Origin: an uncultured Christensenella sp.
GTDB taxonomy: Bacteria; Bacillota; Clostridia; Christensenellales; UBA1242
Direction: 5' to 3'
Length of the DNA: 64,000 nt
NCBI GenBank assembly: GCA_964387705.1
Contig: CAYLWT010000001.1
Span: 35,874 to 99,873, forward strand
Positions 15,701-47,210 of this stretch are shown in pieces. Both the position numbers and the translations under genes were made by a program. Numbering within the stretch: the first letter of the stretch is position 1; every line of letters begins with the position of its first letter. The notes under the pieces were generated by a model, which was given only the letters and a program-made list of their open reading frames with translations, did no database searches and had not been told where the DNA came from.

Positions 15701-18700
15701 CCTTGGAACAAACTCCCCCACCAAACTTTGAAGCCGTATTACTTAAAATGCTCGCCCGAGAAACAGTTGTGTCTCCGAAGGAAAACACTCCGCCTCCGTT
15801 TTGTGCAGTATTATTTGAAATTATACTTTCAGAATAAGTCAAATCAATCTTAAGTTTGCCAGACACCAAAAGAGTTGCACCTTCTTGAACATAAATTGCT
15901 CCGCCATTATCTGTTGCCGTGCAGTTTGAAATCGTGCCAGCAAAAGACACATTCCCTCCATCACAAACATAAATTGCTCCGCCATTTTGAGCCTCACAAT
16001 ATGACAATGTAATGCCATCAAAAGATGCCCTGCCATATACAACAATCGCCCCTCCACCAAGAGAAGAGTTTGTGTTCTTAAGATATGAAATTGCACCACC
16101 CGAAACATTCAAGTTGCCGCCATTTCTAACCAAAATAAAGCCATTTGTGTGAGATATTTTGTTATCGTTTGTGCCATTTGCTTTAACATTATTAAGGTAA
16201 ACTACGCCCTCATCTCCAACCAAAATTGCCGTGCCATAACCAGATTTTGTTGTATCACCATTTTGAGCAAATGTGCAATCTTTAATCACAACTTCACACC
16301 CCTCAACGCTTATTACATCAGATAAGTAAGGATTTGCCTCGCTGACGTTGTTGGTGAAAGAACAATTGTCGAGCGTTCCACTGCTCAAATTTCCACTTTG
16401 CTTGGAAAATACAAGAACAGCACCTTTATTTTTGTTGCCTGTAAATGTTGAATTGTTGATTGTTATATCAACAGAACTTGTTGCTCCAACAACACCAAAC
16501 CCATTCGATATATTGCCTTCAAAGGTGACATTGCTCACTGTTAATTTGTCACTTGCAACATAATTTGATGATGCTTGAGTAAATGTTTTGAAAGAGTTGT
16601 CAAAATAAATTGTTGATGCATAATTTGCTTCATTTTTGTTGAATAATACAATATCTATTTTAAGCGGGGATTTTGCATAAATTGCACCACCAAGACCTGA
16701 CATATCGGTCATATTTTTATTTAAAACTGCTTTATTGTTTTCAAAAATTACTGCATTTTCCGCCACACCAACAATGTTAAGTGTGGAAAATTTTGCAAAC
16801 CCTTCCAAACTATCAATTGCACTGTCCGAGTATATTGCTCCGCCGTAATTTGCTTCATTTTTGATAAATGTTGCACGAACAATTTTTGTAGACATTGGAA
16901 GTGCATATGCAGTTCCACTTTGAGCATTTGGAGAATCATTTACATAATCACTATACTTGATGGTTAATTCACTATTACCAAGAGATATTGCACCACCAAA
17001 ACCAAACATTCCTTCATTTTGTGTTTGGGCAATATTTTCCTCAAATTTTGCCCCGTCAATAATTGTCACCCCACAAGCATGCACTGCACCGCCATTTTGA
17101 GCATAATTTCCTTCAAATGTCACCACAAAATCAACAGCATTCTCATTTAGGATTTCAAAGCAATTTGCTGTGTAAATTGCGCCGCCTTCACCTGTAATAA
17201 TTTCACCTTTCTTTGTTTTATTATCGCTAAAGATTACTATGCCATTTGATGTGTCGTTCGTTGTTTTGTATCCTGCAATCGTTCCCCCTGTTACAATTTG
17301 AACACACTCTCCCCAAACAGCACCGCCTTGCGAAAGGGTGGAACTTGTGGCAAAATTTTCATCAAATTTTCCACCAGAAATTATAAGTTTTGGCGAAGAA
17401 TGTTGACATTTTGTTGAATAAAGTAGAGAAGATGTGACGTTTCCATACGAACAAATTGCACCGCCTTTGGCAATCATTTCCCCACCTGCAACAGAATTTC
17501 CAGAAACATAGACATCTGTGAGTTTTAAGATTGTCTTGCACGAAAGGATTGCCCCTCCACCAACAAACAATCCCTCCCCAGAGGCAGTAACAGAATTCCC
17601 AATGAAAGTTGTATTTTTAATTTCTATTTCAGATTCAGAGCCTATGCTTGAAAGATAAACTGCGCCTCCACCAACTCCAAGATTTTTATTACCCGAAACA
17701 AAAGCTCTGTTGGATTCAAAAAGGCAATTTTGCACAATTCCCGAGCAATCTTGAATGGTCAAAGCTCCACCATTTGACATGCCATCATTATTTATAAATT
17801 CACTATTTTTTATGAGAATATCATCTTTTGAAACCACATTCTCAAGATACAAAACTCCATAATTTGCAAAATTGCTTAACGATTCATCATCTTTTTTCTG
17901 ATTGTATTTTGCAACAAAATTACTTATTGAAATGGCTGCGGACAATTCGTTTGATTTGCATTTTATTGCAAACAATGCCCCAGAACCTGTTGAAACATTT
18001 CTAACAGCATCCAAATTGTTGCCATTATTAAGGTCACCTCCAACAGTTATGTCTTCTAACACCAACTCTTCTGTCCCGTCCAAAATGAAATTTGCAACCC
18101 CATAAAGCTTTGCTTTGTTGCCCGTAAACTTTAAATTTGACATTTCTAGTTTTTTATAACCCTTTGCACTATTTGATTTAACAAGCAATGCTCCTGCAAT
18201 GGCATCTGAATTTGTACTCGTTGCCTCATTCCCATAAAAATTTGTGTTTGTTATTTCAAAATTTCCACTAAAATTGTCACCTGTGCCAACCGCACCAAAT
18301 GAAAGTCCACCCGAATAAAGTCCATTGTTTCCTTTGAATGTGCACCCGTCAAAGCAAACACCAACGCTATCTGAAGAAGTTGATTGATATAAACCTTTGA
18401 CAAGCACTGTCCCATAGCCCGAAGCAGACGAACTGTTTTTTTCAAAAGTTGTTCCACTAAATTTATAATTATATGCACCATTTGCATCAACAATCATTGC
18501 ACTGGCATATCCGTTTTCACCACGAGCATTATTTCCTTCAAACGACCCACCTTCAAATGTTACATCTTTCCCCGATAATAACCGACAATTGTCAAGATAT
18601 AGTGCTGTATCGAATATGTTGTTATCTTTAAATGTTGGATTTTTTATGTAAAGTTGATACCCTGAAATGGATACTGCATAATTTGAATATTTTGAGACAT

Positions 18701-21365
18701 TATTTGTTATTCTCTCTTTGTTGTTTGTTACATAAAGCCCTGTTGAAATGTTAAAACTCTTCCCTGACGTTGTTGTTGCGGTAAGGCTGGCCGAACCTGA
18801 GGAAGCATAGTTATTAGTCAAAATCAACTCGCTCATATCAACCTGTCCTTCACAATAAATTCCACCACCTGCACCAGTCGTTCTGCTGTTTGACACTTCA
18901 AGTTTAGTCCCCAAAATTTTTGCGTTTGACTCAACATTCAACGCACCACCATTGCTCTTTCCGTTTGCATTTTTGATGACACAATTGTTAAAAGTTGCGC
19001 TTCCCGAACCATTTACAGAAACAAAAGATTTTTCTCTTTCAACGTCTTGACCATCAAAAATAATATTCTCAAGGGTTGCCGATTCCCCAGTTGAAATTTG
19101 AAAGGCGGACGACTCTGTTATTGAAGATTGGAAAACTGTCTGATACTTAAACTCAAATGAATAATCTGTTGAAAGCTCGACCACTTCACTGAAATATAAT
19201 GTAGACATATTCCCAACCTCTAGGTCAACCCCATTTCCCGAAAGGCACCTTGCAACTTCATAACTCACTGGAGAAAATGGACTTCTGCCGGAGTTCGTAG
19301 CATAACTTGTACTTGAATTGCTCATTGTTGTGTAAATGATTGGATTTGTTATTTTGTCTGCCGAGATAAAATAGGCATTTCCCTTGAAAATTAAATAGAA
19401 AGTCAACACAAATTGCCCTTCAACATTTGACAATGTTATAGTAGAAGAGCTACCTTCCCCTCCAAGATAACTTGATGCTGGAACAAATTGTTTTGAGTAG
19501 ATGTCTGAAGAGTCTTTTATGTTTGTATAAGTTCTTATCCCTGCGACGATAAATCCTGTAACTGCAGACTTGCCATCGATGGTTATATTTGAGGCCGTAA
19601 CAGAGTATGTTTTGCCATAAGAATCATCAGAAGAGTCTTCAGGGATTTCCCCAGATTGTGTCACAGTGATGCTCCCATCAACAACACCGTCACTTTTAAT
19701 ATGCAGAAGATTTGAAGTGGAGAGATTTGCGTTTTTCACATCATAATTTTCATTTGCCTTTAATGGTTCCCCAATGTTCAATGTGTCGCCTGCATCAATA
19801 TCACCAACATTGTTTGAATTTGCAAAAGTTGAAATGTCAAGGCAAATTACCGGACGAACACCCAAAATGCTATATGCGTACGTACTATTGCTTCCTATCC
19901 AGCTTTCTACTCCTTCACTCTCAATCCTGACAATTGTGTCATGCCCAGTGTCATCAAGCAACCAACGATATTTGTCAAGAGCCCCTTGATCACCATTTGC
20001 AAGAGCATATTGGGTTTTGTATGCTGATTTAATATTGTTGCTGTCGGCATCGGCATAATCCAAAAGCCCAACCTTTTGAGTTATTGATGATGATGTTGTT
20101 CGATAGAAAGATTGCAAGTCGCTTTCATTGTTAGAAAATGCCAAATCATAAAATGTTCTATTGCTTTGATAAAAGGTATCTGTGTAGGTCGTTGAACTGA
20201 TTGAGCTTGTACTTGTAACATCTACAGAAGACTCTCCATTTAACCATGCTTTTAGCACACTGTTGTTAAAACTTTTCCCATAACTAATCAAGGCACTATA
20301 AAAAAATGTCCAAGGATTGTGGTTGATAGCATTTGAATCGATAATTTGAGTGGAAACCAACATTTTGTAATTTCCCGAAGTATCGGAGGCTTTCAAACTG
20401 GCAGAATCAACAACAACCCATTCAATTGGTTCGACTTCATAAAGGAAAATTCCATCAACACCCGTCCCCGTTTCATCGCCAACTTCATCCACTGTATCCG
20501 AACTATCTATCCCTGATGTTTGAAATCTGTCATAGCCATGCAATGCAACCACTTGATTTTTGTCTCGAACCACGCCATCATATTTGTAGTAAGTTCTGCT
20601 AAGTATCATCATTGCTGATTCGTCTCTCACCCCGTCATATGCCCTTATTGGTGCTAAATCTGGGTCTATACCTGGTTGACTGTTATTGTAAGCGTCGCTC
20701 TTGCTTGCGTCAAGCCAAATTTCTTCTCCTGAGAAGTCTGACGTTGTAGAAGAGTCTTTTTTTACTTTGTAATATTTATTCACGCTATCAACCACTCGGT
20801 TGTATGGATAAAATTTTGAGCCAGCAGAATAAGTTAGCGTTCCAACAGTGATAGGTTTTAAAAGAGTGTAATATCCGGTGCTATTGTCATAAGAAATGTC
20901 CTCATCAGCATAATCTTCCCTTGGAGCAAAATATCCTATGGTTGTGTTTCCCCATTCATAATTTTCCTTAATCTCAGTTGTTTTTCCATCCACAGTATGC
21001 GCAGTGCTGTAATATTTTTTTATCAGCGCCTCAATTTTAGTTTTGATTTCAGTGTGAATGTTTACACTGTCAGAATCAACCACATATGGGACCACTATCT
21101 CCTCAGAGCTATTTGAAGATGTTGTTAATGTGATAGTTTTCCACTCTTTCACATTAATGACAGTTGATTGAGGGTATTCACCAAAATAGACTTTGCTACC
21201 TGTGGAAAGACTTTCGACCTGCGAAACTCCTGTGCCAGAAGCAAATGCCGTTTTTCGTGGCATGCTAAGAACTGCCGACAAACAAATGCACGCCGACATT
21301 ATGCATAGTCCCACCGATTTTAAAATGGTGACTAGTTTGTTCTTTGCGGAAATTGTTTTGAACAT
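12759..21365 (-). CDS. Giant (2868 aa) secreted Pmp-repeat / beta-helix surface protein with a C-terminal transmembrane anchor
   Basis: Listed ORF, with AAAGGAG 9 nt upstream of the ATG. N-terminal signal peptide (...LSAVLSMPRKTAFA|SGTG). Dozens of GGA[ILV][YF] motifs (NGGAIYVCD, YGGAIYSDS, LGGAIYAKS, MGGAIFATN...) alternate with FxxN motifs (FTGNKA, FEGNYA, FRGNKA, FDGNSA...). The N-terminal roughly 540 aa are non-repeat and end in ...YSILGVRPVICLD. The C-terminus has a hydrophobic helix, LTTILNVICVLIAIAIFVILIV, followed by KSKKSQTFYKK. No LPXTG motif. Confidence 0.9.
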   Translation of the reverse strand: MFKTISAKNKLVTILKSVGLCIMSACICLSAVLSMPRKTAFASGTGVSQVESLSTGSKVYFGEYPQSTVINVKEWKTITLTTSSNSSEEIVVPYVVDSDSVNIHTEIKTKIEALIKKYYSTAHTVDGKTTEIKENYEWGNTTIGYFAPREDYADEDISYDNSTGYYTLLKPITVGTLTYSAGSKFYPYNRVVDSVNKYYKVKKDSSTTSDFSGEEIWLDASKSDAYNNSQPGIDPDLAPIRAYDGVRDESAMMILSRTYYKYDGVVRDKNQVVALHGYDRFQTSGIDSSDTVDEVGDETGTGVDGIFLYEVEPIEWVVVDSASLKASDTSGNYKMLVSTQIIDSNAINHNPWTFFYSALISYGKSFNNSVLKAWLNGESSVDVTSTSSISSTTYTDTFYQSNRTFYDLAFSNNESDLQSFYRTTSSSITQKVGLLDYADADSNNIKSAYKTQYALANGDQGALDKYRWLLDDTGHDTIVRIESEGVESWIGSNSTYAYSILGVRPVICLDISTFANSNNVGDIDAGDTLNIGEPLKANENYDVKNANLSTSNLLHIKSDGVVDGSITVTQSGEIPEDSSDDSYGKTYSVTASNITIDGKSAVTGFIVAGIRTYTNIKDSSDIYSKQFVPASSYLGGEGSSSTITLSNVEGQFVLTFYLIFKGNAYFISADKITNPIIYTTMSNSSTSYATNSGRSPFSPVSYEVARCLSGNGVDLEVGNMSTLYFSEVVELSTDYSFEFKYQTVFQSSITESSAFQISTGESATLENIIFDGQDVEREKSFVSVNGSGSATFNNCVIKNANGKSNGGALNVESNAKILGTKLEVSNSRTTGAGGGIYCEGQVDMSELILTNNYASSGSASLTATTTSGKSFNISTGLYVTNNKERITNNVSKYSNYAVSISGYQLYIKNPTFKDNNIFDTALYLDNCRLLSGKDVTFEGGSFEGNNARGENGYASAMIVDANGAYNYKFSGTTFEKNSSSASGYGTVLVKGLYQSTSSDSVGVCFDGCTFKGNNGLYSGGLSFGAVGTGDNFSGNFEITNTNFYGNEATSTNSDAIAGALLVKSNSAKGYKKLEMSNLKFTGNKAKLYGVANFILDGTEELVLEDITVGGDLNNGNNLDAVRNVSTGSGALFAIKCKSNELSAAISISNFVAKYNQKKDDESLSNFANYGVLYLENVVSKDDILIKNSEFINNDGMSNGGALTIQDCSGIVQNCLFESNRAFVSGNKNLGVGGGAVYLSSIGSESEIEIKNTTFIGNSVTASGEGLFVGGGAILSCKTILKLTDVYVSGNSVAGGEMIAKGGAICSYGNVTSSLLYSTKCQHSSPKLIISGGKFDENFATSSTLSQGGAVWGECVQIVTGGTIAGYKTTNDTSNGIVIFSDNKTKKGEIITGEGGAIYTANCFEILNENAVDFVVTFEGNYAQNGGAVHACGVTIIDGAKFEENIAQTQNEGMFGFGGAISLGNSELTIKYSDYVNDSPNAQSGTAYALPMSTKIVRATFIKNEANYGGAIYSDSAIDSLEGFAKFSTLNIVGVAENAVIFENNKAVLNKNMTDMSGLGGAIYAKSPLKIDIVLFNKNEANYASTIYFDNSFKTFTQASSNYVASDKLTVSNVTFEGNISNGFGVVGATSSVDITINNSTFTGNKNKGAVLVFSKQSGNLSSGTLDNCSFTNNVSEANPYLSDVISVEGCEVVIKDCTFAQNGDTTKSGYGTAILVGDEGVVYLNNVKANGTNDNKISHTNGFILVRNGGNLNVSGGAISYLKNTNSSLGGGAIVVYGRASFDGITLSYCEAQNGGAIYVCDGGNVSFAGTISNCTATDNGGAIYVQEGATLLVSGKLKIDLTYSESIISNNTAQNGGGVFSFGDTTVSRASILSNTASKFGGGVCSKENSSLTIEQGAIISENKLTSSDSFGAGIYAIGSLYINGAEISNNKFEEQVTNGVGGGLYADSVSFEARDTIFRGNKASMGGAIFATNGAISLSYLSFDGNSATTGGAVYLQRCTTNILSSEFSKNTATGNGRAVLFTSGQLVVQDSSFDDGGQSSETGVAKLYVEDCVSFVLSNCEFGEENGGNISHLYVKASKSAEILDSNFSYGKCDGDESGVVISAPNVWVENCNFNQNADGGLSLTTNYGIIANSKFLSNKKNGGLKLNKLDEDCSIEIIDSSFTDGNVSTSGSAIYVSNGVNLRLSGEIIVTGNSSSNGAIYIAETGKIVITRGSKVVISGNTNTSDSKSNLNLKLNVGGTAFLEGGLVEGSSIGVTLQSGSVVVQSPTDTNIPLENDDIKKFFSDDNSSYYLSYSSNKKQLLAYSKSSTTDSKMISVTDENDNTYTYSLILSDITLLYSNMPKGGYVIDKSYFEVKNNNNVVDIVSMTFSLKEGASFLEEHTDSITLHSKGSYTLGIAVKKIRIGESEVELKSSVLETTKNGLAGEIVVQIVGEYLYIISTPQAKMISQNESSFKLTQAGLVKRSNGQEVAGTWSLLSPESVVNSGYYDCKFTPKQTSLYENKDNVTAKMYVEVVYNKMYYMTVGKDTAIYADSEGKNKINVSSFAEALEYLNDDGTFVFKTSYSVQGSETIAISKRVKFVRENSEINFAMIEVNDGGNLTISCTGGQALFEGKDDSTQSPLFVVNGRLTLGANVEVRNFTYTSYASSSLHGIICNKGTLILQGCKIYDNELKFSSNSDYVIGGVVYNEGTMRVLSGEFYGNKAINGNGGFVYSAGKLTVSGGTISNNKSGSGAGVYVANGGSATLLSGQITHNIAQNNGGGICVADGGELVLDNTQILSNIASGEGAGLYKGEGGSVLLSSGEKVLTSTIESVEAMNTIESSEQIVQNDNLTTILNVICVLIAIAIFVILIVKSKKSQTFYKK

Positions 21366-21759
21366 CTTGGTTATCTCCTTTTAGACTACCCATTATTTCT
21401 GCCCAACATAAATTTGCATTTTTCACTTGTTATGCGGTTTTCTACTCCGACCAATTGTTCCACCTCGCACACAGCAACCATAACAAGATATATAAATTAC
21501 TACCTTATTATAGTAGTATCTTCAAAAAATACCAAATAAATTACACCAAATTTTAACAAAAAATAGTAAAATTTTTCAAGCCCTATCAACTTGAATTTGC
21601 AAAATTATTGATAAAAAAAGATAAAAATTTTCATTGAAAAAATATAAAATATCTTTTGGCAACAAAAACAATTCAAAAAAGTTTACCTTATTCACCAAAT
21701 AAAAAAATAAATCGCTAAAACTCGCACCACAAATGACTTTTAGCAATTATATTTTGACA

Positions 21760-21785
21760 ACAAAAAAGAGAACCTAAGGCTCTCT
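21760..21785 (-). terminator. Rho-independent terminator after hup
   Basis: Minus strand: AGAGAGCC-UUA-GGUUCUCU hairpin (21767-21785, one G:U pair) followed by a T-run (TTTTTTGTTG). Confidence 0.6.
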
Positions 21786-21821
21786 TTTTGCGAAAATTAC
21801 TTCAAATGATTGTCAGAACAA

Positions 21822-22094
21822 TTATTTAAGCATATCTTTGAAAGATTTTCCGAACTTGAAAGTTGGTGCTTTGGTTGCTGGGATTTTGATTGCCTTTTTT
21901 GTTTGTGGATTTACCCCAGTTCTTGCAGCTCTTTCTTTAACTTTAAAAGTGCCGAATCCTGCGAGGACAACCTCTTCTCCGTTTTTCAATGCTTCAGCAA
22001 CTGTTGCCACGAATGCTTTGTATGCTTCGTCCGCATCTTTAAGTGTGAAGCCAGCTTTTGTTGCGATTGCGCTAACAATATCACCTTTGTTCAT
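21822..22094 (-). CDS. hup: HU-family histone-like DNA-binding protein
   Basis: 90 aa: MNKGDIVSAIATKAGFTLKDADEAYKAFV...GFGTFKVKERAARTGVNPQTKKAIKIPATKAPTFKFGKSFKD. This is the classic HU/IHF fold signature. AAGGAG RBS. Confidence 0.95.
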   Translation of the reverse strand: MNKGDIVSAIATKAGFTLKDADEAYKAFVATVAEALKNGEEVVLAGFGTFKVKERAARTGVNPQTKKAIKIPATKAPTFKFGKSFKDMLK

Positions 22095-22309
22095 AATTTT
22101 TCTCCTTGTTTTAAAAAATTCCTTAACAGGTTACCCTAATATAACACATTTTCTCATTATTTCCTAACAATTTTTCACATTTTTTTGTTTTTTAGCACAA
22201 ATATTGCCATATTCACCCAATTTTATACTTAAAGGAACCTCTTTCAATCTAATTTTTGCCAAAAAATTGTTTTTTAAACTTATTTCCCATAAATTATTTT
22301 TGAAAATCC

Positions 22310-26442: not shown

Positions 26443-28818
26443 TTAATTTTTGTCTTCACCAGATTTTTCTTCAGAACTTTTATCTGTCTTTTCCTCTTCT
26501 TTTTGTTCAAGAGTTGTCTTATCAACTATTTTTCTAACAGTTTTCTTTGGTTTTGAAGCGACTTCTTCGCCCTTTTCTTGGGTTTTGATTGTCCTTTTGT
26601 GTGAGTGTTCATGCTTTTCTTGTTGTGCTGAAAATTTATCTTTCAATTCTTGAACTTTCTTTTCTGCAACAGAAATTATATTTTCAGAATCAGTCTTAAC
26701 TTTTTCAATTTCCTCTGCCGAAAGAACTCCGCCTTTTTTCAACGCTTCTGCAGTTTTGATTCGAATAGATTGTTCTTTTTTCACTCGTTCAAGGTCGGCT
26801 TGGGCACGCTCAATTTCAATTCTTTCTTTGTTCCTTATGGCGTCTTGTTCCATTTGAAGAAGAATTTGTTTGGTCGTTTTGCCTTTCATAATCATTTCAA
26901 CTTCATTAAAATAAATTGTTTCCTTTTCAAGCAAAACTTCCACCATAGTGTTCATTTGTTTTGCGTGTTTGGTTATAATATCTTTGGCTCGACTGTAACA
27001 ATTGTCCAAAATAGATTTGACTTCGCTGTCAATTTCTGAAGCTGTTTTTTCGCTGTAATTTACTTGTGTTTGATAATCTCTACCCAAGAAAACTTCACTG
27101 CTAGAGCCAAGATTCATTGTGCCAAGTTTTGCGCTCATTCCCCATTCTGTAACCATTTTTCTAGCAAGTTTCGTGGCTCGCTCAATGTCATTTGAAGCAC
27201 CAGTTGAAATATCTTTCACCATAATTTCTTCTGCAGCTCTGCCACCAAGCATCATTGTTATATTGTCTATGAGCTTGTTGTAAGACATATGACTTTCGTC
27301 ATTATCTGGACGACTGATTGTATAGCCAGCAGCCATACCACGAGCGATAATTGACACTTCTTGCACCACATCACAATGTTCAAGCACCTTGCCCACAATG
27401 GCATGCCCACTTTCGTGATAGGCCGTTATGCGTTTATCCACTTGAGTAACCACACGACTGCGTTTTTGAGGACCCATAATAACTTTGTTTATCCCTTCTG
27501 TAATATCGGTCATTGTTATTGCTTTTCGATTTTCTCTTGCGGTAAGAATGGCCGCCTCGTTCAAAAGGTTTTCAAGGTCAGCACCTGTAAATCCACTGGT
27601 AAGCCTTGCCACATTTTTAAAATCAACTGCACTATCAATTGGTTTATTTCTAGCATGGATCTTCAAAATCATTTCTCGGCCTTTGACATCTGGTGGCATA
27701 ATATAAATTTGTCTATCAAATCTGCCAGGTCTTAAAAGTGCTGGATCAAGCACATCTGCACGATTTGTTGCTGCAATTACAATAATACCAGTGTTTCCTT
27801 CAAACCCATCCATTTGCACCAAAAGTTGATTTAAGGTTTGCTCACGCTCATCATTTCCGCCGCCAAGCCCAGCGCCACGCTGTCTACCAACTGCATCAAT
27901 TTCATCAATAAATACAATACAAGGAGATTCTTTTTTTGCCTGGTCAAAAAGGTCACGAACACGAGATGCACCCACCCCCACAAACATTTCAACGAAATCA
28001 CTTCCGCTAATTGAAAAGAAAGGAACATTGCTTTCGCCTGCAATTGCCTTTGCAAGAAGGGTTTTTCCTGTTCCGGGTTGACCAACAAGCAAAATACCTT
28101 TTGGAATTTTCGCTCCAAGCTCAGTGAATTTTTGTGGATTTTTCAAAAACTCAACAATTTCAAGCAATTCTTCTTTTTCTTCGTCAATGCCCGCTACATC
28201 AGAAAATTTCACTTTCACATTATGAGCGATTTGAGCTTTTGTTTTGCCAAAATTGAAGCTTTTTTGATTTGCCCCCAAAATGCTTCTAATAAGGATAACT
28301 CCTAATATTACCACAATTATTACACTCAAGTAAGGGAGCAAACTTTCCCACCAAGTTGTCTTTGAAACATGAGTTGGATAAGCCTCAATAAGAACCCAAC
28401 CATTCCCATTACTCTCAGCCTCAGTATTATAAGCCTCAATCATAGCTTTAACTTCGTCATAATCAGATTCCGTAACATACTCAAAATAGTAATCACAATT
28501 TCCGACAATATCATCTTTAGAACATTTGCTGTCCTTTGCAATGACATAACCAATCCCATTGTCTGCAAGTGCAACATATTGTATAGAACTGCCCTTGTAA
28601 TTTACTTCATTTGAAAAAATATATTTCCCATCGGAGTCTTTTTTAACTCCAATTAATGATTGCAAAGAATTTGTGACCGTTGAAGGCCCAGATATTGATA
28701 TTTTCGTGCCAATATTTCCAGTTTGAGTGAGATAAAAGAGCAAAATAATTGCCAATAGCGACATCACAAAAACTATCCAACCCCTAGTTTTATTATTTTT
28801 CAATCGTTTTTCCTCCAT
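26443..28818 (-). CDS. ftsH: ATP-dependent zinc metalloprotease FtsH with a long Lys/Glu-rich C-terminal extension
   Basis: Two TM helices; Walker [18 protein letters not shown]; zinc site [12 protein letters not shown] 28818 ([10 protein letters not shown]) is preferred over the listed TTG at 28860. The last roughly 170 aa are low-complexity K/E-rich sequence. Confidence 0.93.
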
Positions 28819-29022
28819 TTTTCTAATAAGTATTCTACCATATAAATAGTTTTTAAGCAATAAAATTTATCCTATTTTTATCAAAAAAATTTTTATTTTT
28901 TTATTTGCCATCTATTAAGACGACTCCAAAGTTCATTTTCACAAAACATACTTATAATCACACGTATAGAGTTTTTCTCGAATGAATGTTCAGCCTCAAA
29001 AAAACTACAGGTCGGAAGGCAG

Positions 29023-29054
29023 TTATCCACAAAATTCGACAAAATTGTGGATAG
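29023..29054. promoter_or_regulatory. Inverted pair of DnaA boxes
   Basis: TTATCCACA (29023-29031, perfect consensus) and TGTGGATAG (29046-29054, one mismatch to TGTGGATAA) face each other across 14 bp that contain AATTCGACAAAA. Confidence 0.6.
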
Positions 29055-29283
29055 TTTCAAAAACAATTTTTGCAAATTAAATAATCAAAAAAATAGATTA
29101 GTTACTCCTTAAAAACTAAAGACATATTTTTATAAAAAATTTTAGTCAAAAAAGTTAAAATTCAGAAAATTTACAAAAATATTACATAAACTCATAAATC
29201 CCGCATAAATAATAGAAAGTAACGATTTTTTTTGTTCATAAAAGAGCTAAAAATAGGCCTAAATCTTCTCTCACACAGAATTT

Positions 29284-29318
29284 TCAATCAAAATTTTCAA
29301 TTTTATCAATCAAAATTT
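29284..29318 (+). repeat. Direct repeat of an AT-rich 13-mer (2 copies, 22-bp period)
   Basis: TCAATCAAAATTT at 29284-29296 and again at 29306-29318, inside the 945-bp ORF-free spacer. Confidence 0.5.
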
Positions 29319-29569
29319 ACTTAAAATCCGTTCAAGATTGGAAATAGACAAAAAAATACCCCAAGGGAATCAATTATGTTTAATATGAATGTTTTTGTCA
29401 TGGCACATTTAAACATTGTTATATTAGTATAACTATTTTGAATTTTATTTTTACCCTATCTCAAAAAACGTCTGTACAAAAGCTTATGATTCTTTTAAAA
29501 ACTACTAGACGAGAGATCCTATGTAAATTTAAAACAACATTTTTACTAATTGAAAAAATAAACATCGAA

Positions 29570-29585
29570 TGTTTCACATGAAACA
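29570..29585. promoter_or_regulatory. parS-like site 1
   Basis: TGTTTCACATGAAACA versus the Firmicute parS consensus TGTTNCACGTGAAACA: one mismatch, at the central G. Confidence 0.6.
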
Positions 29586-29728
29586 TTTATAACAACAATC
29601 AAATTGTTTTACACAGAACATTGAGCATATGGCTTAAATATTTTTAGGATGATTAAAAAACAATATTAGGTTCTCGCTAGAATGATTGATAGAAATCTAA
29701 AAACGTTAAATTAAGAATAAACAAAATA

Positions 29729-29744
29729 TGTTCTACGTGAAACA
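29729..29744. promoter_or_regulatory. parS-like site 2
   Basis: TGTTCTACGTGAAACA: one mismatch to TGTTNCACGTGAAACA (position 6). Confidence 0.55.
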
Positions 29745-29773
29745 TTTATTACAAATAAAAAAATTCCATGCAA

Positions 29774-29789
29774 TGTTTCACATGGAACT
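29774..29789. promoter_or_regulatory. Degenerate parS-like site 3
   Basis: TGTTTCACATGGAACT: three mismatches to the consensus. Lies 17 bp from the parB stop codon. Confidence 0.3.
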
Positions 29790-29805
29790 TTTTAAAAAAA
29801 ACGAT

Positions 29806-30720
29806 TTATCTTTCAAGTTTTGAAATAAACGAACAAATTCTATCTAAGTCATCAGAAGTAAAGTAATCTATTGAAATTTTACCCTTATTATCATCACCAT
29901 GAATCACAACTTTTGTTCTAAAAAGTCGTTGAATCCTATGTCCTAACTCTTTAAGCTCGATACTTTGAATTATTTTTTTCTTAGGTTCTGCAATTTTTAC
30001 ATTTTGAGCATCTTTTACAAGTTTTTCAAAATCTCGAACAGATAACTTTTTTTCAATTGCAAATTTTGCTAAATCTATTTGCTTTGATGGATCTGTAATA
30101 ACAACTAAACATTTTCCATGCCCAGCTGAAAGTTGCCCATTTTCAATAAAACTGATTACTTCTGGTGTGAGCGACAGCAAACGCAAAGTATTCGCAACAA
30201 GGGGACGACTTTTACCAATTCTATCAGCAACCGCTTCTTGCGTAAAGCCATAACTATCCATAAGTTGTCTAATAGCTTTTCCCGCTTCGATTGGATTCAA
30301 ATCCTCACGTTGCAAATTTTCAATAAGAGCAATTTCTTGCATCTGTTGCTTATCAAAATCTTTAATAATAGCTGGAATAGTCTTTAATCCAGCATTAAGG
30401 CAGGCCCTAAATCTCCTCTCGCCAGCAACAATTGTATACCTATTGTTAGAACTTTTCGTTACAATAATAGGCTGAATCACCCCATGTTGCTTTATTGACT
30501 CCGAAAGTTCTCGAAGGGAAGCCGCATCAAACTTTTTTCTTGGTTGATCCTTATTGGGATCAATCAACTTCATGTCAAGTCCAACAACCCCATCACGTAA
30601 ATTTTTTTCCAACTGCAATTTATCTTTTTCTATTGCAGTTTGTTTTTCAACAGCATTTTCTTCTTCGTCTTGATAAATTGAAAATAAAGCATCAAGCCCT
30701 CTTCCTAAACCGTGTTTCAT
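29806..30720 (-). CDS. parB: Chromosome-partitioning protein ParB/Spo0J
   Basis: True start is ATG 30720 (MKHGLGRGLDALF..., GAGGAG RBS). GERRFRA box and HTH region present. The listed 62-codon N-terminal extension (to 30906) is AT-rich junk. Confidence 0.92.
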   Translation of the reverse strand: MKHGLGRGLDALFSIYQDEEENAVEKQTAIEKDKLQLEKNLRDGVVGLDMKLIDPNKDQPRKKFDAASLRELSESIKQHGVIQPIIVTKSSNNRYTIVAGERRFRACLNAGLKTIPAIIKDFDKQQMQEIALIENLQREDLNPIEAGKAIRQLMDSYGFTQEAVADRIGKSRPLVANTLRLLSLTPEVISFIENGQLSAGHGKCLVVITDPSKQIDLAKFAIEKKLSVRDFEKLVKDAQNVKIAEPKKKIIQSIELKELGHRIQRLFRTKVVIHGDDNKGKISIDYFTSDDLDRICSFISKLER

Positions 30721-30967
30721 CTTTTTCTCCTCATAAATGGACAAGTCCAAATTCAAGAATAGTTTAACATTAAAATAAAAAAATTGCAACAAAAAAAATA
30801 TATATATTATGTGGAAAAATAAGATAAAAATGTTTTTTAGAATAACTTTATAAATCCAAAATATATACAAAAAGCAGTCCGAGGAAGTCAAATAAAACAA
30901 TCTCAAACTGCTAATAAAACACTATAGTCATCTAATTAAGCATACTATAATGAAAAAGCAAACAAAA

Positions 30968-31756
30968 TCAATTAGTTACATTTTTATAACTATCATGATT
31001 CCGTTTCATAAATTCTTTTGCAAGTTCAAAATAAGCAACCCCACCTTTACCTCTTGGGTCATAAAGAAAAATAGGCTTACCATGACTTGGAGCTTCTGCA
31101 AGACGAATTGTCCTTGGTATGGCATTATCATAAACTTTTTTACCAAAAAACTTGCGAATTTCCTCAGAAACCTGCTGAATAAGGTTTGAACGATTGTCTT
31201 TCATCGTCAAAACAACACCTTCAACATCGATTTCTGAATTTAAATGCTTTTTAACAAGTTTAATTGTATTCATAAGTTGGCTTAAACCCTCAAGCGCAAA
31301 AAATTCACACTGAATAGGAATCATAACAGAATCTGAAGCCGTAAGAGCATTAACAGTAAGCAATCCGAGCGAAGGTGGGCAATCAATCAAAATGTAATGA
31401 TAATTTTTTTTGATTTCGTCAAACAAATTTTTAACAACTTTTTCACGGTTTTTCATTTCGACAAGTTCAATCTCCGCCCCCGCCAAATCAACAGTTGCAG
31501 GTATTATATCCAAATTTTTGATAAAAGTAGGCCTTATAACCTCTGAAATTGACATTTCACCTGAAATTGCATCATACATTGTGCCCATTTTTTGAGTTTT
31601 ATCCACACCAAGCCCGCTTGAAGCATTCCCTTGAGGGTCCATATCTACAACCAAAATCTTTTTGCCAAAAACCGCAAGATAAGATGCCAAATTTATGCAA
31701 GTTGTGGTCTTACCAACACCACCTTTTTGATTTGCAAATGAAATAATTTTTCCCAT
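30968..31756 (-). CDS. parA: ParA/Soj partition ATPase
   Basis: Deviant Walker A: MGKIISFANQKGGVGKTTT. Full-length ParA-like sequence. GGAAGGA RBS. Confidence 0.93.
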   Translation of the reverse strand: MGKIISFANQKGGVGKTTTCINLASYLAVFGKKILVVDMDPQGNASSGLGVDKTQKMGTMYDAISGEMSISEVIRPTFIKNLDIIPATVDLAGAEIELVEMKNREKVVKNLFDEIKKNYHYILIDCPPSLGLLTVNALTASDSVMIPIQCEFFALEGLSQLMNTIKLVKKHLNSEIDVEGVVLTMKDNRSNLIQQVSEEIRKFFGKKVYDNAIPRTIRLAEAPSHGKPIFLYDPRGKGGVAYFELAKEFMKRNHDSYKNVTN

Positions 31757-38117: not shown

Positions 38118-38410
38118 CTTATATTTCCTTTAATATTTGGTTTTACGGGGTCAAATCCACCCTTTGACCAAGGGTTACACCGAAAAATTCGTTTCACTCC
38201 AAAAATCATTCCACAAAAAACTCCATACTCTTTAACTGCCATCACAAAATATTCTGAGCAAGATGGATAAAATCTGCATGCATGCGGAAGAAGTGGAGAT
38301 ATTATGTATCTATATAACTGAACAAGCCCCAAAACAACTATGTAAATGGGGAATAACAACACAAAAATAATCTTTTGACACGTTGTCTTGTTTTTAAAAT
38401 TATTTTTCAC
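38105..38410 (-). CDS. yidD: Membrane protein insertion efficiency factor YidD
   Basis: YRYIISPLLPHACRFYPSCSEYFVMAVKEYG signature. GTG start overlaps the rnpA stop (GTGA). Confidence 0.85.
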   Translation of the reverse strand: MKNNFKNKTTCQKIIFVLLFPIYIVVLGLVQLYRYIISPLLPHACRFYPSCSEYFVMAVKEYGVFCGMIFGVKRIFRCNPWSKGGFDPVKPNIKGNIRWLL

Positions 38411-38736
38411 AGTTTAACCTTTTGAAACAAGCCTTCAATTTGCGAAACCAATTCCAAAAAGTTTTTTTCCACAGCACTTGGTTTTGCAACAATGACATAA
38501 TTTGCAACAGGGAAGGAATTTATCCTAACCCTAACAATTTCACTCAACCTACGCTTAAGTTTGTGACGAACAACACTATTGCCAACTTTGTTGCTTACAG
38601 AAAATCCAACTTTAGATTGTGAAAATTTAGTTTTTGTTGCAAAAAGAGTTAAATCTTTTGCAAAATAAGTTTCGCCTTTTCGGTATATGTAAGAAAATTC
38701 TTTCTTTTTTTTAAGTCTGTTTTTTGTTTTCAGCAT
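38407..38736 (-). CDS. rnpA: RNase P protein component
   Basis: 109 aa, basic, with the RNR-like motif SNKVGNSVVRHKLKRRLSE. Immediately downstream of rpmH. Confidence 0.9.
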   Translation of the reverse strand: MLKTKNRLKKKKEFSYIYRKGETYFAKDLTLFATKTKFSQSKVGFSVSNKVGNSVVRHKLKRRLSEIVRVRINSFPVANYVIVAKPSAVEKNFLELVSQIEGLFQKVKL

Positions 38737-38739
38737 AGT

Positions 38740-38877
38740 TTAAGCGGAAAGATGTTTTCTGCCACGATTCCTTCTGCGAGAAAGCACTTTTCTTCCGTTC
38801 TTGGTTGCCATTCTTTTTCTAAAACCGTGAACTTTGCTGCGTGAGCGTTTGTTTGGTTGATATGTTCCCTTTTCCAT
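38740..38877 (-). CDS. rpmH: 50S ribosomal protein L34
   Basis: Not in the ORF track because it is under 60 aa. Hand translation: [53 protein letters not shown] 6 nt upstream. Confidence 0.95.
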
Positions 38878-38964
38878 AATTACCTCCTATCATTCTCAAG
38901 TTTGTCCACGATTTGACTGATTTTTACCCGAACAATCAGTCCTCAAAATTAAACTTGCTCTCAA

Positions 38965-38993
38965 AGTGTAATAGATTTAATTTCATTTGTCAA
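38965..38993 (-). promoter_or_regulatory. Putative rpmH operon promoter
   Basis: Minus strand: TTGACA-N17-TACACT. A DnaA-box-like TTGTCCACG (two mismatches) and an 8-bp hairpin (GACTGATT/AATCAGTC) lie in the leader. Confidence 0.45.
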
Positions 38994-39135
38994 CAGTTTT
39001 TTGAAATTTGTTGAAACTTTTTTGAAAGGAGATATGGGATGCGAGAACCTGTCCCACACCCCATATTTAAAACAAAATAATATATTTATAAATTATGCCG
39101 ACCAATCCGTCAGCATAAAAACAAGCTAAACTCCG

Positions 39136-40080
39136 CTAAAATTCAAAGTCAAATTCTCCTTGAATATCCGCAGAATCACTTTCAGAATTGCCGGTCGGAA
39201 TTGTCTCCTCCCCTTTATTTTCTTTTTTATTCATAAAGTTTTCCACAATTTTTGACTTGCTTGTGGACAACTTCCTTTTTTTATGTCTTTCAGACGTTAT
39301 AATTTTTTCAGAATAGTCAGTCGCATCAGCTTCATCATCCTCATAAGGAGTCTTAACTTCCATTCCAAAATCAATAACGTAGTCATCTGGAATAGGTTCG
39401 TTATTAACAAAAAGTGCTCCACTTTCATTTCTGGAAATAAGATTTCCATTAAGGTCCACTCCAAGCTCAGTCAACTTGACCATTTTGTAATAATCTTCCA
39501 TCGTCATCTTTCCAAAGCGATTTTCAAGATAAACAAAAGGATCATTTGTAATTTCAAGATGATACAATTTTGCAAGTTTTTCCACAATAGGATTCATAAC
39601 CTGCCTGTATGTTTCCACTCTCGTAAGGTCATTTTTAAGCTTTTTCTTTAAACCAGCAGCACCCTTAACACTTCTCTGAATTTCAATAGGAGTTGCAAGA
39701 TACTCTCTATCCGCAAGTTTATCAACTTTGTCCTCAATAACTTGTGGAAGTTTATAATTTTTAAGTGCAATAGAAATGGCCTTATTTTGCAAAAGAAATA
39801 GGCTTACCAAGTTTTCCTTTGACAATTTGTCCTGCCAATTTTTTTTATTTTGAATAAGTTTTTTGCAAAATTCACTTGCATCATCATCATAAATGAAGAA
39901 ACGCTTTGCAATTGCAGTTTGTGTTTCTGCCAAATAATCTCTTTTGCTTCTTTTAGAAAATTCCGAAGGTTTTGAATCCATATCCTTGCCAAAAATGGAA
40001 CGGATAATTTTATAATTCTCCGAAACTGCATTTCTGCAAATTACCCACTCTTCATCCTCGCTATAATTTTTCATTGTCAT
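39136..40080 (-). CDS. Orphan hypothetical protein (314 aa) between dnaN and rpmH
   Basis: ATG 40080 with GGAGG RBS. No family recognised. The basic stretch KKRKLSTSKSK is followed by an acidic tail ending ...SESDSADIQGEFDFEF*. Confidence 0.75.
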   Translation of the reverse strand: MTMKNYSEDEEWVICRNAVSENYKIIRSIFGKDMDSKPSEFSKRSKRDYLAETQTAIAKRFFIYDDDASEFCKKLIQNKKNWQDKLSKENLVSLFLLQNKAISIALKNYKLPQVIEDKVDKLADREYLATPIEIQRSVKGAAGLKKKLKNDLTRVETYRQVMNPIVEKLAKLYHLEITNDPFVYLENRFGKMTMEDYYKMVKLTELGVDLNGNLISRNESGALFVNNEPIPDDYVIDFGMEVKTPYEDDEADATDYSEKIITSERHKKRKLSTSKSKIVENFMNKKENKGEETIPTGNSESDSADIQGEFDFEF

Positions 40081-40282
40081 ACAAACCTCCTCTTTTCATA
40101 CCAAAAAAATACTTTGGAATCTTTTGGTTTTGTTTTATTGTTCGTAACCAATCACGAGTAAAACTCCACCATTTTTTCGCACAACACTGTCTAACTTTGT
40201 CGACTAAGCAAGATTGTAGTGCCATGCCATAAAGTCACAACTGTCACCCCTAGAACAGACCTATTTGCAACCTTATACTTCA

Positions 40283-40311
40283 ATTGTAAACTACGAAACA
40301 GCCAATGTCAA
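40283..40311 (-). promoter_or_regulatory. Near-consensus SigA-type promoter driving a roughly 200-nt leader of the orphan gene
   Basis: Minus strand: TTGACA (40306-40311)-N17-TACAAT (40283-40288). Confidence 0.6.
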
Positions 40312-40340
40312 TACTTAATGCCATATTTTTTTAATTTTTT

Positions 40341-40374
40341 TTTGAAAATAAAAAATCCCCTACAAAAAGGGGAT
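40341..40374 (-). terminator. Rho-independent terminator after dnaN
   Basis: Minus strand: ATCCCCT-UUUUGU-AGGGGAT hairpin (40355-40374) followed by TTTTTTATTTTC. Confidence 0.75.
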
Positions 40375-40381
40375 TAAAAAT

Positions 40382-41488
40382 TTATTGAGTGATAATTCTT
40401 ACAGGCAAAATAAGGTAAAGATATTCATCACCATCCACAGGCGTCACAACACAAGGACTTGATGGAGTGTTAAAGGAAATTTTAATTGCCTCATCACTCA
40501 TAGTCCTAAGTCCTTCAGAAAAATAGCGAGAATTGAACGCAATAGTAAGGTCATTTCCTGTTAGGGCAATTCCAATGTTTTCTCTTATGTTTCCAATGTC
40601 AGAATTTGACGTTAAAGTCAAAATCTTTTCTCTAATTTCAAACTTCACCAAATTATTTCTATCAATTCTAGACAAAATTGAAGTTCTTTCAATTGCTTCC
40701 TCAAACATGTTTCTTGAAATAATAATGCTTGTTGAAAATTCACTTGGAACAATTTGTTTGTAGTTTATAAAATCTCCCTCAATAAGTCGAGAAATAATTT
40801 TTGTGCTATCAATATCCACCATAAGAAAATTTTTCTGCACACAAATTTTAATTTCTTCATCGCTATCTTCAAGGAATTTTGAAATTTCCGTCAAACTCTT
40901 TGCAGGCACAACAATTCTTGTTTCAACACTGCTATCCTTAACAGGTTTTTTGACCAAAGCAAGTCTATAACCATCAAGTCCAACTGCTGTAATAATTTCC
41001 TTTCCAATTTCAAAACACACACCTTTCAAAATTGGTCTTGTATCATCAAGTGCAGTTGAAAAAATTGATTTTGCAACAAGATTTTTAAAATCTTTTTTGG
41101 ACATGACAAAATATTCACTGTCACCCAAAATTTCCAGATTAGGGAATTCCTTAACATTGTAACATTGAACATAACTTTCGCTATCAGTGTAATTTATTTT
41201 TAACTGGTTCTTATCATTCAACTCAAGTTCAATTCTGTCATTTGTCAACTTTCTAACAAATTCAGAAAAGAATTTTCCTGGAACAACAGCCTCGCCCTCC
41301 ACTTTAACATCTGCTTTAATAGTTTTTTCAATAGCAAGTTCCAAATCTGTTGCTGATAGTTTTAAAGTATCATTTTCCGCAGTCAACTTAATTCCTTCCA
41401 AAACAGGATTTGTTGTTTTTGAAGATATTGCCTTGATAACTTGTGCAGTTGCCACAGACAAATCTAATCCTTCACACGTAACTTTCAT
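40382..41488 (-). CDS. dnaN: DNA polymerase III beta sliding clamp
   Basis: 368 aa. MKVTCEGLDLSVATAQVIKAISSKTTNPVLEGIKLTAENDTLKLSATDLELAIE... is typical. Follows dnaA. Confidence 0.93.
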   Translation of the reverse strand: MKVTCEGLDLSVATAQVIKAISSKTTNPVLEGIKLTAENDTLKLSATDLELAIEKTIKADVKVEGEAVVPGKFFSEFVRKLTNDRIELELNDKNQLKINYTDSESYVQCYNVKEFPNLEILGDSEYFVMSKKDFKNLVAKSIFSTALDDTRPILKGVCFEIGKEIITAVGLDGYRLALVKKPVKDSSVETRIVVPAKSLTEISKFLEDSDEEIKICVQKNFLMVDIDSTKIISRLIEGDFINYKQIVPSEFSTSIIISRNMFEEAIERTSILSRIDRNNLVKFEIREKILTLTSNSDIGNIRENIGIALTGNDLTIAFNSRYFSEGLRTMSDEAIKISFNTPSSPCVVTPVDGDEYLYLILPVRIITQ

Positions 41489-41535
41489 TTAATTCTTCTC
41501 CTTTATTTTTATAATATATATAGTAGCGTTTTCAT

Positions 41536-41890
41536 TGTGCACAACTCAATTTTATCCGCCAAAATCACAACATATTGTGGTTTACTTCACCATTTTAGCA
41601 TTTCAAACCACAATTTTTAGTTGTTGATAACTGCTTTTTCCCATTTCAATAACATTGTGGATAAGTGTATGAAATTGTTGACAACCTCCCATTTTTTTAA
41701 AATCGCATTAAGGTTTTACTATATTATAAATTCAATTATAATATACAAGTTTTAAAGTAAATATTAGGGCAGTGGATTTGTGCATAACTTGTTTTTTTTG
41801 AAAAAACGAACCTTTTATATTGCATTATTTCGTTCAAAACGTCTTAAATTTATCAACAATTTTAGTGGACAACCCATCAAATGTGGATAA
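41536..41890 (-). promoter_or_regulatory. DnaA-box cluster in the dnaA-dnaN spacer (candidate oriC / DUE-containing half)
   Basis: Two perfect TGTGGATAA boxes (41656-41664, 41882-41890). Co-oriented two-mismatch boxes: TGTGCACAA 41536, TGTGGTTTA 41576, AGTGGATTT 41771, AGTGGACAA 41864. One opposite-orientation two-mismatch box: TTATCCGCC 41552. A nearly pure A/T stretch at about 41714-41765 lies between them. Confidence 0.6.
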
Positions 41891-41941
41891 GTTGCTTAAT
41901 TTTAAAAATTCGACAAATTCCATACAACAAATCAAATTTTT

Positions 41942-43291: not shown

Positions 43292-43315
43292 ACGCACCCC
43301 CAAAAATACATTATA

Positions 43316-43344
43316 ATTTTACTATAATAATTTTTTAATGTCAA
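43316..43344 (-). promoter_or_regulatory. Putative dnaA promoter
   Basis: Minus strand: TTGACA (43339-43344)-N17-TAAAAT (43316-43321). Confidence 0.5.
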
Positions 43345-43739
43345 CCCCAGAGCAAAAATAAAAAATATTTTTTAAAAAAACTTGTTAAATTTGCTTGACA
43401 AGGTTTTTGGGCAAAAAATATTGTCGAATAAATGACAAAAGTGCCAAATAATGCATAATTTATAAATTTAATTGTCAAATAAACGCTAAAATTCACTATT
43501 TATGCAAGTTTTAGCAATTTTATGACAATTTATTCTTAATAATATGTATTTCACCAAAATATGTTTTTTTATTTGAAAAATCGACAAAACTTGCATTATA
43601 AGTAAAAAGTAACAATTATGTTGTTTTTTGGATAGTAAAAATAAAAATTAAATAAATTTTTAAGATGTCTATATTAGATATCTTTGATAAAAAAAATATT
43701 TTTATATTACAAAATAAATGTAAAAAAAATACAATAACT

Positions 43740-45158: not shown

Positions 45159-47210
<2,052 letters not shown>

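Follow-up and report, generated by a model that had tools for sequence, protein, structure and literature searches.

The spacer that we analysed separates parB from ftsH in a stretch of 64,000 nucleotides (the window). Its source is an uncultured bacterium of the Clostridia with a low GC content, and the genomes nearest to it in public collections bear the labels Christensenella sp. UBA7862, Christensenellales or Clostridia metagenome-assembled genomes (MAGs). ParB identity to the closest relatives reached at most 94-95% in the genome collection and 99% in the protein collection. A Pfam scan gave the following order on the minus strand: recF, dnaA, dnaN, an open reading frame (ORF) of 314 aa, rnpA, yidD, yidC, jag, mnmE, mnmG, rsmG, parA, parB, the spacer and ftsH, the product of which is an M41 peptidase/AAA protein. 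The genes gyrB and gyrA are divergent and run from 45171 on the plus strand. For comparison, loci of relatives (given L numbers below) were collected: 22 genome loci by ParB retrieval, three by a metagenome scan, these with short upstream flanks, and 11 by exact-protein look-up. A 5.1-kb stretch of the window is identical to Logan contig L026 of run SRR11880803, which carries the exact ParB and was the sole match in an exact look-up of that protein. The N-terminus of FtsH gave one match in the protein database.

A first-pass annotation of the same DNA, made without database searches, had drawn attention to an ORF-free gap of 945 bp at 28861-29805. The gap is real, but its ftsH end had been misplaced. 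In L004 and L005 the 'MEEx' extension that precedes a TTG codon is interrupted by an in-frame stop; this TTG is therefore taken as the start of ftsH, and the arrangement GGAGG-N7-TTG is kept in all aligned relatives. With this start the spacer covers 28804-29805 and measures 1,002 bp, with 24% GC. The single ORF of 60 aa listed for the gap is indeed the longest that was found, and it has no match in the relatives. The succession of parB, a gene-free gap and ftsH was seen in every relative whose contig reaches ftsH, at ParB identities of 59-95%, and L025, which was fetched through FtsH and whose contig lacks parB, also has a gene-free gap before ftsH. In the relatives the gene-free parB-ftsH gap measures 0.45-3.1 kb with 16-26% GC; in L004 and L005 it extends over 1.8-2.2 kb with no ORF of at least 60 aa inside. 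Conservation is confined to islands, namely the parS array, the last 250 bp before ftsH and a 20-bp palindrome, and the middle of the spacer is fast-evolving and AT-rich. The 3.1-kb gap of L033 (L033:5910-9002; ParB 65% identical) has no called gene and contains four parS sites, a DnaA-box pair and the palindrome. In L001 and L003 the spacer carries a conserved ORF of 162-169 aa (L001:11469-11978 and L003:11455-11943) that has no Pfam match and is directly followed by a palindrome array.

The three parS-like sites that had been pointed out at the right end of the gap are present (Table 1) and are the only good matches in the 64 kb, the parS scan of the window having given 6 matches against 0.88 expected. 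A 42-nt repeat family is common to all three sites, and the AGTTCCATGTGAAACA element of the hairpin that follows parB is found 17-20 bp past the parB stop in L001 and L003 as well. In most relatives an array of two to nine parS sites stands just after parB, down to a ParB identity of about 52%, and in distant lineages the sites are mostly perfect copies of TGTTTCACGTGAAACA. No parS array was found at the parB 3' position in the distant L012-L016 and L018-L021. Compared with the parS of ParABS systems, the sites show the 16-bp palindrome TGTTNCACGTGAAACA, and they are origin-proximal (12-15 kb from the predicted oriC), conserved and located beside parAB. We conclude that the first-pass annotation read these sites correctly as parS and that the right-hand third of the spacer serves chiefly in this role.

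The sites resemble the parS of Bacillus subtilis in their 16-bp palindrome and in lying in several copies near oriC and parB. In B. subtilis, however, eight parS are found at separate genome positions, one of them inside spo0J, whereas here two to nine sites form a gene-free array. A second difference concerns the centre of the site: in the window, L001, L003 and L004 most parS have CATG (TGTTTCATGTGAAACA) rather than CGTG, and L029, L031, L034 and L035 have mostly perfect sites. In the P1 and F plasmids (type Ia) the order is parA-parB-centromere, with parS directly after parB, and the order parA-parB-parS of the window is plasmid-style in this sense. As judged from the sequence of the sites, ParB probably binds them; it would load there and build a partition complex 12-15 kb from oriC, and this part of the spacer would therefore be the centromere. 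Transcription of parB would stop at the hairpin.

At the other end of the spacer, the left 250-bp block can be aligned across the clade of the window; over 251 bp it is about 77% identical to L001 and L003. It contains one strong sigma-70-type promoter composed of a -35 element TTGCTT (28855-28860), a 17-nt spacer and an extended -10 element TGg-TAGAAT (28832-28840). Overlapping and opposite-strand matches inside it aside, this was the sole promoter-like match at the same alignment column in six out of six aligned relatives, and it was assigned to ftsH. The promoter is nearly invariant in seven lineages, and promoters of the same type were found in more distant relatives. The block upstream of it includes an A/T-rich UP-like tract and invariant motifs, GTCG near 28920-28924 and CCGAC at 29010-29015. 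Motifs of the CtsR, sigma-54 and extracytoplasmic-function types were compared by eye with the conserved GACTTTTTGGTCG region and did not fit. A second promoter overlapping the DnaA boxes was also considered, and none was kept among the aligned relatives.

The first-pass annotation had also noted two DnaA boxes facing each other across 14 bp, and both are present as described: a perfect box, TTATCCACA, on the plus strand (29023-29031) and a one-mismatch box, CTATCCACA, on the minus strand (29046-29054). A perfect box with another of at most one mismatch within 40 bp was seen in none of 300 shuffled windows. With 23 bp from start to start, or about two helical turns, the two boxes should be on much the same face of the DNA. 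Six related lineages (L001/L023, L003, L027/L028, L004, L005/L024 and L032) have the pair at an equivalent position, and its distance from the promoter is 164-167 bp in seven (the window, L001, L003, L027, L004, L005 and L032). The box columns, TATCCA(C/T) and TTGT(G/T)GATAACT, are near-invariant, while the DNA around the boxes has diverged and the 13-15 bp in between are wholly different across sub-clades. Such a conserved position of the boxes relative to a conserved promoter is a feature of DnaA-regulated promoters. In L001 and L003 a second pair stands 57 bp further upstream, giving four boxes in 88 bp, and TTATCAACA, the variant box of L004 and L005, is also more frequent than any other variant around the dnaA of the window. 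A fixed helical phasing between the site and the promoter was considered and rejected: the distance is constant within sub-clades and ranges from 129 to 189 bp between them, and a 12-bp ladder seen post hoc is not claimed.

To place the pair in its family, the window and the non-redundant loci were pooled (475 kb) and searched for boxes of at most one mismatch each, 9-40 bp apart. The forward-then-reverse arrangement with 21-25 bp from start to start, usually reading AGTTATCCACA-N13/14-TGTGGATAACT, accounted for 19 of the 31 close pairs and was the commonest arrangement in the family. Most of the 19 module sites are intergenic and near promoters of origin-proximal genes. Outside the ftsH position, the module was found in the parA-parB gap of L008 (upstream of parB), in the rsmG-parA gap of L035 (upstream of parA), 7 bp from a parS in L006 and in the middle of the spacer in L033. 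A second conserved inverted pair with the same geometry was observed at 39239-39270 of the window, at L001:735-766, at L003:901-932 and probably at L008:1797-1828. In the window and L001 this second pair lies inside the 3' end of an uncharacterised ORF of 265-314 aa, about 330 bp upstream of rpmH, and its boxes are better conserved than the protein that they overlap.

Between the boxes of the spacer lies a 12-mer, TTTGTCGAATTT (29032-29043, minus strand), which contains a perfect Spo0A-box core, TGTCGAA. From base composition about 0.03 copies are expected per window by chance. The window has two exact copies, the other being located in the dnaA-dnaN spacer (41906-41917), 16 nt from a perfect box, and a one-mismatch copy is present upstream of dnaA (43577-43588). 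In the loci of 25 relatives (about 330 kb) the 12-mer was found only inside the pairs of L001, L003 and L023. In the oriC of B. subtilis, Spo0A boxes (TGTCGAA) are interleaved with DnaA boxes. The pair resembles that layout in its perfect TGTCGAA between the boxes and in the recurrence of the 12-mer beside DnaA boxes, but differs from it in that L004, L005 and L006 have no TGTCGAA between theirs.

Table 1. Coordinates of the features of the parB-ftsH spacer and of the neighbouring origin region in the window.
Feature	Position	Strand	Basis	Remarks
ftsH start TTG (28801-28803) with Shine-Dalgarno sequence GGAGG (28812-28816)	28801-28816	-	stops in L004/L005, conservation	
ftsH promoter, sigma-70-type	28832-28860	-	only promoter-like match at constant alignment column	
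ftsH upstream block	28861-29022	-	alignment	almost indel-free
Inverted DnaA-box pair	29023-29054	both	motif match, shuffles, conservation	23 bp start to start
Weak palindrome copy TAGTTACTCCTTAAAAACTA	29099-29118		pattern search	2 mismatches; significance uncertain
rsmG 5' end relic (about the first 25 codons)	29226-29297	-	80.6% over 72 bp against the L004 rsmG start, E = 4.6e-11	non-coding now
Two 13-mers TCAATCAAAATTT	29284-29318	+	by eye	flank or adjoin the rsmG relic and resemble its AAATTCTGTGTGA start (AAATTYTG..TGA)
Palindrome TTGTTAT-N6-ATAACTA	29416-29435		pattern search	
parS site TGTTTCACATGAAACA	29570-29585		motif match	1 mismatch to the Firmicute consensus
parS site TGTTCTACGTGAAACA	29729-29744		motif match	2 mismatches to the fixed query, 1 to TGTTNCACGTGAAACA
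parB terminator-like hairpin and T run	29758-29793	-		stem holds a degenerate third parS-like site, 29774-29789 (3 mismatches)
parB, 304 aa, true start MKHGLGRG	29806-30720	-	Pfam ParB_N, HTH_ParB, ParB_C; translation	
Palindrome copy TAGTTACATTTTTATAACTA	30973-30992	+	pattern search	over the last 7 codons of parA
parA	30968-31756	-	Pfam scan	
dnaN	40382-41488	-	Pfam scan	
Likely oriC, dnaA-dnaN spacer (453 bp)	41489-41941	-	DnaA-box cluster, layout, nearby skew switch	
dnaA	41942-43303	-	Pfam scan	
recF	43740-44831	-	Pfam scan	

The third conserved element is a 20-bp palindrome with the family consensus TAGTTAT-N6-ATAACTA. The window has three matches against 0.3 expected, all of them in the par region, and the weak copy among them aligns opposite the second DnaA-box pair of L001 and L003. 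Of the 23 lineages in which the DNA downstream of the parS array was searched, 19 have the palindrome there. Near the end of parA, copies with at most one mismatch lie 21-24 bp before the parA stop in nine lineages (ParB 53-100% identical); L001, L003 and L005 have two-mismatch copies at this place and L004, L012 and L013 none. The arms of the parA-end copy are conserved and its centre is free, which points to a constraint on the DNA and not on the protein. In L007, L008, L025, L029, L031, L034, L035 and L036 the palindrome is located 199-257 bp before the ftsH start. In the clade of the window the DnaA pair takes this ftsH-side position, with the palindrome further upstream. The exact point at which homology with the palindrome-type relatives sets in is ATAACT-N8-GACTTnnAGT, and the pair and the palindrome have the same outer arms, AGTTAT/ATAACT. 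L003 carries three tandem palindromes with a period of 26 bp (L003:11966-12037), and L008 has copies at 9817 and 11383. A role as a hairpin is unconvincing because, by eye, the changes in the arms are mostly uncompensated and the stem is AT-only.

Taken together, we regard the spacer as a composite of a centromere, filler and an ftsH control region, with a probability of about 60%; it is no replication origin. The centromere belongs to a known kind and the DnaA pair is a variant form of the DnaA sites outside origins; the novelty that is left over consists of the fixed two-box geometry and the palindrome bracketing parB. In the control region, ftsH and the genes behind it would be transcribed from the conserved promoter, and DnaA would occupy the inverted pair and tie transcription of the ftsH operon to the level of the initiator. 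Incidentally, DnaA at the pair would keep some initiator near the origin. The sequence elements with their statistics, conservation and positions are shown, as are the places of the skew switch and of the oriC-type box cluster; the binding of ParB and DnaA, any effect on ftsH and the sign of that effect are inferred. As a guess, the effect could be activation or insulation, because upstream boxes activate at B. subtilis sda and at Pseudomonas aeruginosa gidA.

The stable DnaA sites of B. subtilis outside oriC offer the nearest comparison. They regulate the neighbouring genes sda, ywlC and yydA, they consist of 4-8 boxes in 45-100 bp in mixed arrangement, and the one at ywcI-vpr also carries a parS (Ishikawa 2007, PMC2533591). 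The pair is like these clusters in that its boxes match the consensus, are intergenic, stand near but outside the origin and by the promoter of a neighbour, and are conserved among relatives. It is unlike them in being a stereotyped inverted pair with 13-15 bp between the boxes. The spacer has two boxes of at most one mismatch and not at least four in about 100 bp, and none of the eight DnaA-bound regions described for B. subtilis adjoins ftsH (PMC2533591). A second parallel is oriCII of P. aeruginosa, the DnaA boxes of which exert control over gidAB-parAB from a position upstream of the gidA promoter (PMC13438810). There, as here, the boxes precede the promoter and do not overlap it, and they link the initiator, or in the window would link it, to cell-cycle genes in a gid/par neighbourhood; the phylum is different, however, the target is ftsH here and gidA there, and the P. 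aeruginosa boxes are within a recognised origin-like region. The pair also recalls DARS1, DARS2 and datA of Escherichia coli, which are non-origin sites with oppositely oriented DnaA boxes. The DARS core has three boxes, I and II being opposite with a 5-bp gap and III in tandem with II, whereas here there are two boxes, a gap of 13-15 bp and no tandem third box. A DARS-like site was ruled out by spacing and box number. B. subtilis has neither the IHF/Fis sites nor Hda-type regulation.

Several observations weigh against a role of the pair in ftsH control. The boxes are situated about 195-230 bp upstream of the transcription start, which is far for classical DnaA repression, and the window has two boxes against the 4-8 of the stable sites in B. 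subtilis, although L001 and L003 have four. The presence of the two-box module elsewhere in L006, L033, L008 and L035 means that it may act independently of ftsH. As distant relatives have the palindrome instead of boxes at the upstream position, it may matter that some protein is bound there, and not that this protein is DnaA. In addition, the distance from the upstream site to the promoter varies between sub-clades (129-189 bp).

Regulation of the ftsH promoter by DnaA and titration of DnaA were both among the options offered by the first-pass annotation, and both survive, the pair being conserved at a near-constant distance from the promoter. As a full alternative, the pair could be purely a reservoir or titration site for DnaA, comparable to the box clusters of B. 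subtilis or to datA of E. coli, that tunes the timing of initiation and has no role for ftsH. Its consensus boxes, 12.6 kb from the predicted oriC, and the occurrence of the same module at varied positions in other lineages would fit this, as would the four boxes in 88 bp of L001 and L003, which fall within the B. subtilis range. Furthermore, the deletion of six clusters in B. subtilis advances initiation (Okumura 2012, as cited in PMC13220808). The window, however, has two boxes only, and the pair, its 164-167 bp distance from the promoter and the block between them are conserved jointly, which pure titration would not need. We therefore consider this alternative possible but rather unlikely.

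The bracketing of parB and the parS array by palindromes in most lineages examined allows another interpretation, in which the pair, or the palindrome in relatives, serves the partition complex as a boundary or as a coupling element: tight binding of a protein on the ftsH side and at the 3' end of parA would confine sliding ParB clamps to parB and the parS array, or DnaA would be put beside ParB-stimulated ParA/Soj. Besides the bracketing, this is favoured by the DnaA pair holding the ftsH-side position in the clade of the window with the same outer arms, by the L006 pair 7 bp from a parS and the palindromes that often adjoin a parS, and by the inhibition of DnaA oligomerisation by Soj/ParA. 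All of this evidence is positional, and the positions would be explained just as well by simple operators for parB and ftsH. To our knowledge, no dedicated natural roadblock protein for ParB has been established. We consider this explanation doubtful; the broader proposal, that parB and the parS array are bracketed by dedicated protein-binding boundary elements, the palindrome at the 3' end of parA and 130-190 bp upstream of the ftsH promoter being one candidate, and that in the clade of the window the ftsH-side palindrome has been replaced by a head-on DnaA pair with the arms retained, is only slightly less doubtful.

The almost indel-free block of 160 bp upstream of the ftsH promoter could also reflect an unannotated small RNA or small protein gene, and the ORF of 162-169 aa in the longer spacers of L001 and L003 could be cited in favour of the latter. 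Rfam 15 was searched at gathering and permissive thresholds for the window and at gathering thresholds for the spacers of seven relatives. No match was obtained in either at gathering, and the sole match of the window with E<=5 was to a microRNA model, with 16.7 bits against a gathering score of 90. The predicted folds were not stable: z-scores against shuffles were -0.74 and 0.04 (conserved block; middle, opposite strand), and the consensus fold reached -4.67 kcal/mol, with the helices of the conserved motifs formed by invariant columns that show no compensatory change. Thus, the small-RNA option of the first-pass annotation found no support in the Rfam scan or in the folds. Besides the ftsH promoter, the last 300 bp have no conserved promoter-like match on either strand. 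A tblastn search of the relatives with all peptides of 18 aa or more between successive stops gave only matches that were interrupted by in-frame stops, came from parS sequence or fell in a relic of rsmG, and the ORF of L001 and L003 has no counterpart in the window. A gene of either kind in the gap is consequently improbable. A tiny 'MDFLVV'-type ORF, seen by eye, was discarded for its lack of a ribosome-binding site and its unstable length.

The origin-like appearance of the spacer had led the first-pass annotation to consider a relic or second half of a bipartite origin, parted from dnaA by rearrangement. Two boxes in AT-rich non-coding DNA of 24% GC and the 12-mer TTTGTCGAATTT, common to this spacer and that between dnaA and dnaN, are in line with such an origin, but the remaining evidence is not. 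The GC-skew analysis that had been proposed as a check, done over the window, showed a steady fall of the cumulative skew from the left end to about 44.5 kb, followed by a rise; the sign changes at about 44.5-45 kb and not at the spacer. The GC skew of the spacer (-0.15 to -0.21 at 1-kb resolution) is like that of its neighbours, although it is non-coding, and shows no inflection. The dnaA-dnaN spacer has five boxes at <=1 mismatch, two of them perfect, and 11 at <=2, whereas the parB-ftsH spacer has two and five, respectively, over twice the length and no dense box cluster beside an AT-rich unwinding element. As seen by eye, the dnaA-dnaN spacer also has the usual Firmicute layout of tandem boxes, then a short GC patch and an AT-rich tract. 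The parB-ftsH spacer is located 12.6 kb and eleven genes away from dnaA, the gene order from mnmE to parB is unchanged in the relatives over the part covered by their loci, and the spacer persists, with no box pair in it, in relatives whose ParB is 59-67% identical. An origin layout of box, GC cluster and trinucleotide repeats was looked for by eye; the box beside the GC-rich CTGCCTTCCGACC is wrongly oriented and no repeats were seen.

The repeats that had seemed origin-like have a different source. The middle of the spacer carries a relic of the 5' end of rsmG with stops in every frame, and the same relic is found in the spacers of L001 and L003, where 36 nt of it agree perfectly with their own rsmG. 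The two 13-mers TCAATCAAAATTT are present where the first-pass annotation had placed them, and a third exact copy lies at 24240. Their proposed role as an AT-rich origin element did not hold up, the window having 21 matches at <=2 mismatches against 23.4 expected. Comparison with related genomes, which the annotation had proposed, thus upheld the boxes and not the 13-mers, the latter being absent from the loci of all 25 relatives. Their sequence suggests, by eye, that the 13-mers arose by local tandem duplication at the edge of the rsmG relic, so that the relic and its duplicates would account for the 'origin-like' AT-rich repeats. As repeats of an unwinding element they were rejected, being at chance level, unconserved and adjoined to the relic. 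Antisense pairing between the relic and rsmG mRNA was rejected as well, since the copies are in direct orientation and, by eye, that of the window is about 72% identical. With the skew, the box counts, the unconserved 13-mers and the box orientation all against it, a bipartite origin is very improbable. It is hardly conceivable, finally, that the 32-bp inverted repeat is the operator of a dimeric transcription factor and not a DnaA site: its fixed inverted geometry (N13-15) is typical of dimeric regulators and its outer arms are common to the 20-bp palindrome, but the arms are canonical 9-mer DnaA boxes, the same 9-mers or variants cluster at dnaA-dnaN, and the DnaA of the window has a standard DNA-binding domain by Pfam.

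Some further observations concern the surroundings of the spacer. The order of the origin region (38407-45170) is unusual, with recF upstream of dnaA and with dnaN followed by the uncharacterised ORF and then rpmH-rnpA, and there is no noc between rsmG and parA. The recF-dnaA and recF-gyrB gaps have 15-18% GC and no DnaA boxes at <=1 mismatch, yet the skew switch is located there. The gap between parA and parB (30721-30967) is unusually long, at 247 bp, and contains one one-mismatch DnaA box at 30810. The parB-ftsH spacer is not alone in its length, either: the longest other spacers had been put at 430-460 bp, but 21366-22309 is a second gap, of 944 bp, without a convincing ORF. This gap has no Rfam match and sits upstream of the second of two tandem giant ORFs on the minus strand, which span 3-12473 (at least 4,157 aa, running off the left end) and 12759-21365 (2,868 aa). 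The two probably encode surface or adhesin-type proteins.

For the prediction of origins, the locus teaches that consensus DnaA boxes in long AT-rich gaps beside parB are not origins. If the interpretation of parB and the parS array as bracketed by boundary elements were true, it would reveal a new way to confine the ParB complex and a possible physical coupling of the replication initiator to the centromere, involving a palindrome-binding factor and a two-box binding mode of DnaA, the latter not described elsewhere. The gene-free parS array and the palindrome, which are found family-wide, provide handles for studying chromosome segregation in Clostridia. If DnaA does occupy the pair, the initiator would be linked to FtsH, and thereby to cell division and the quality control of membrane proteins, in a lineage of the gut of which no member has ever been cultured. 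Non-origin DnaA sites could then be fixed two-box inverted modules instead of loose clusters, which would give a useful rule for predicting DnaA regulons in MAGs.

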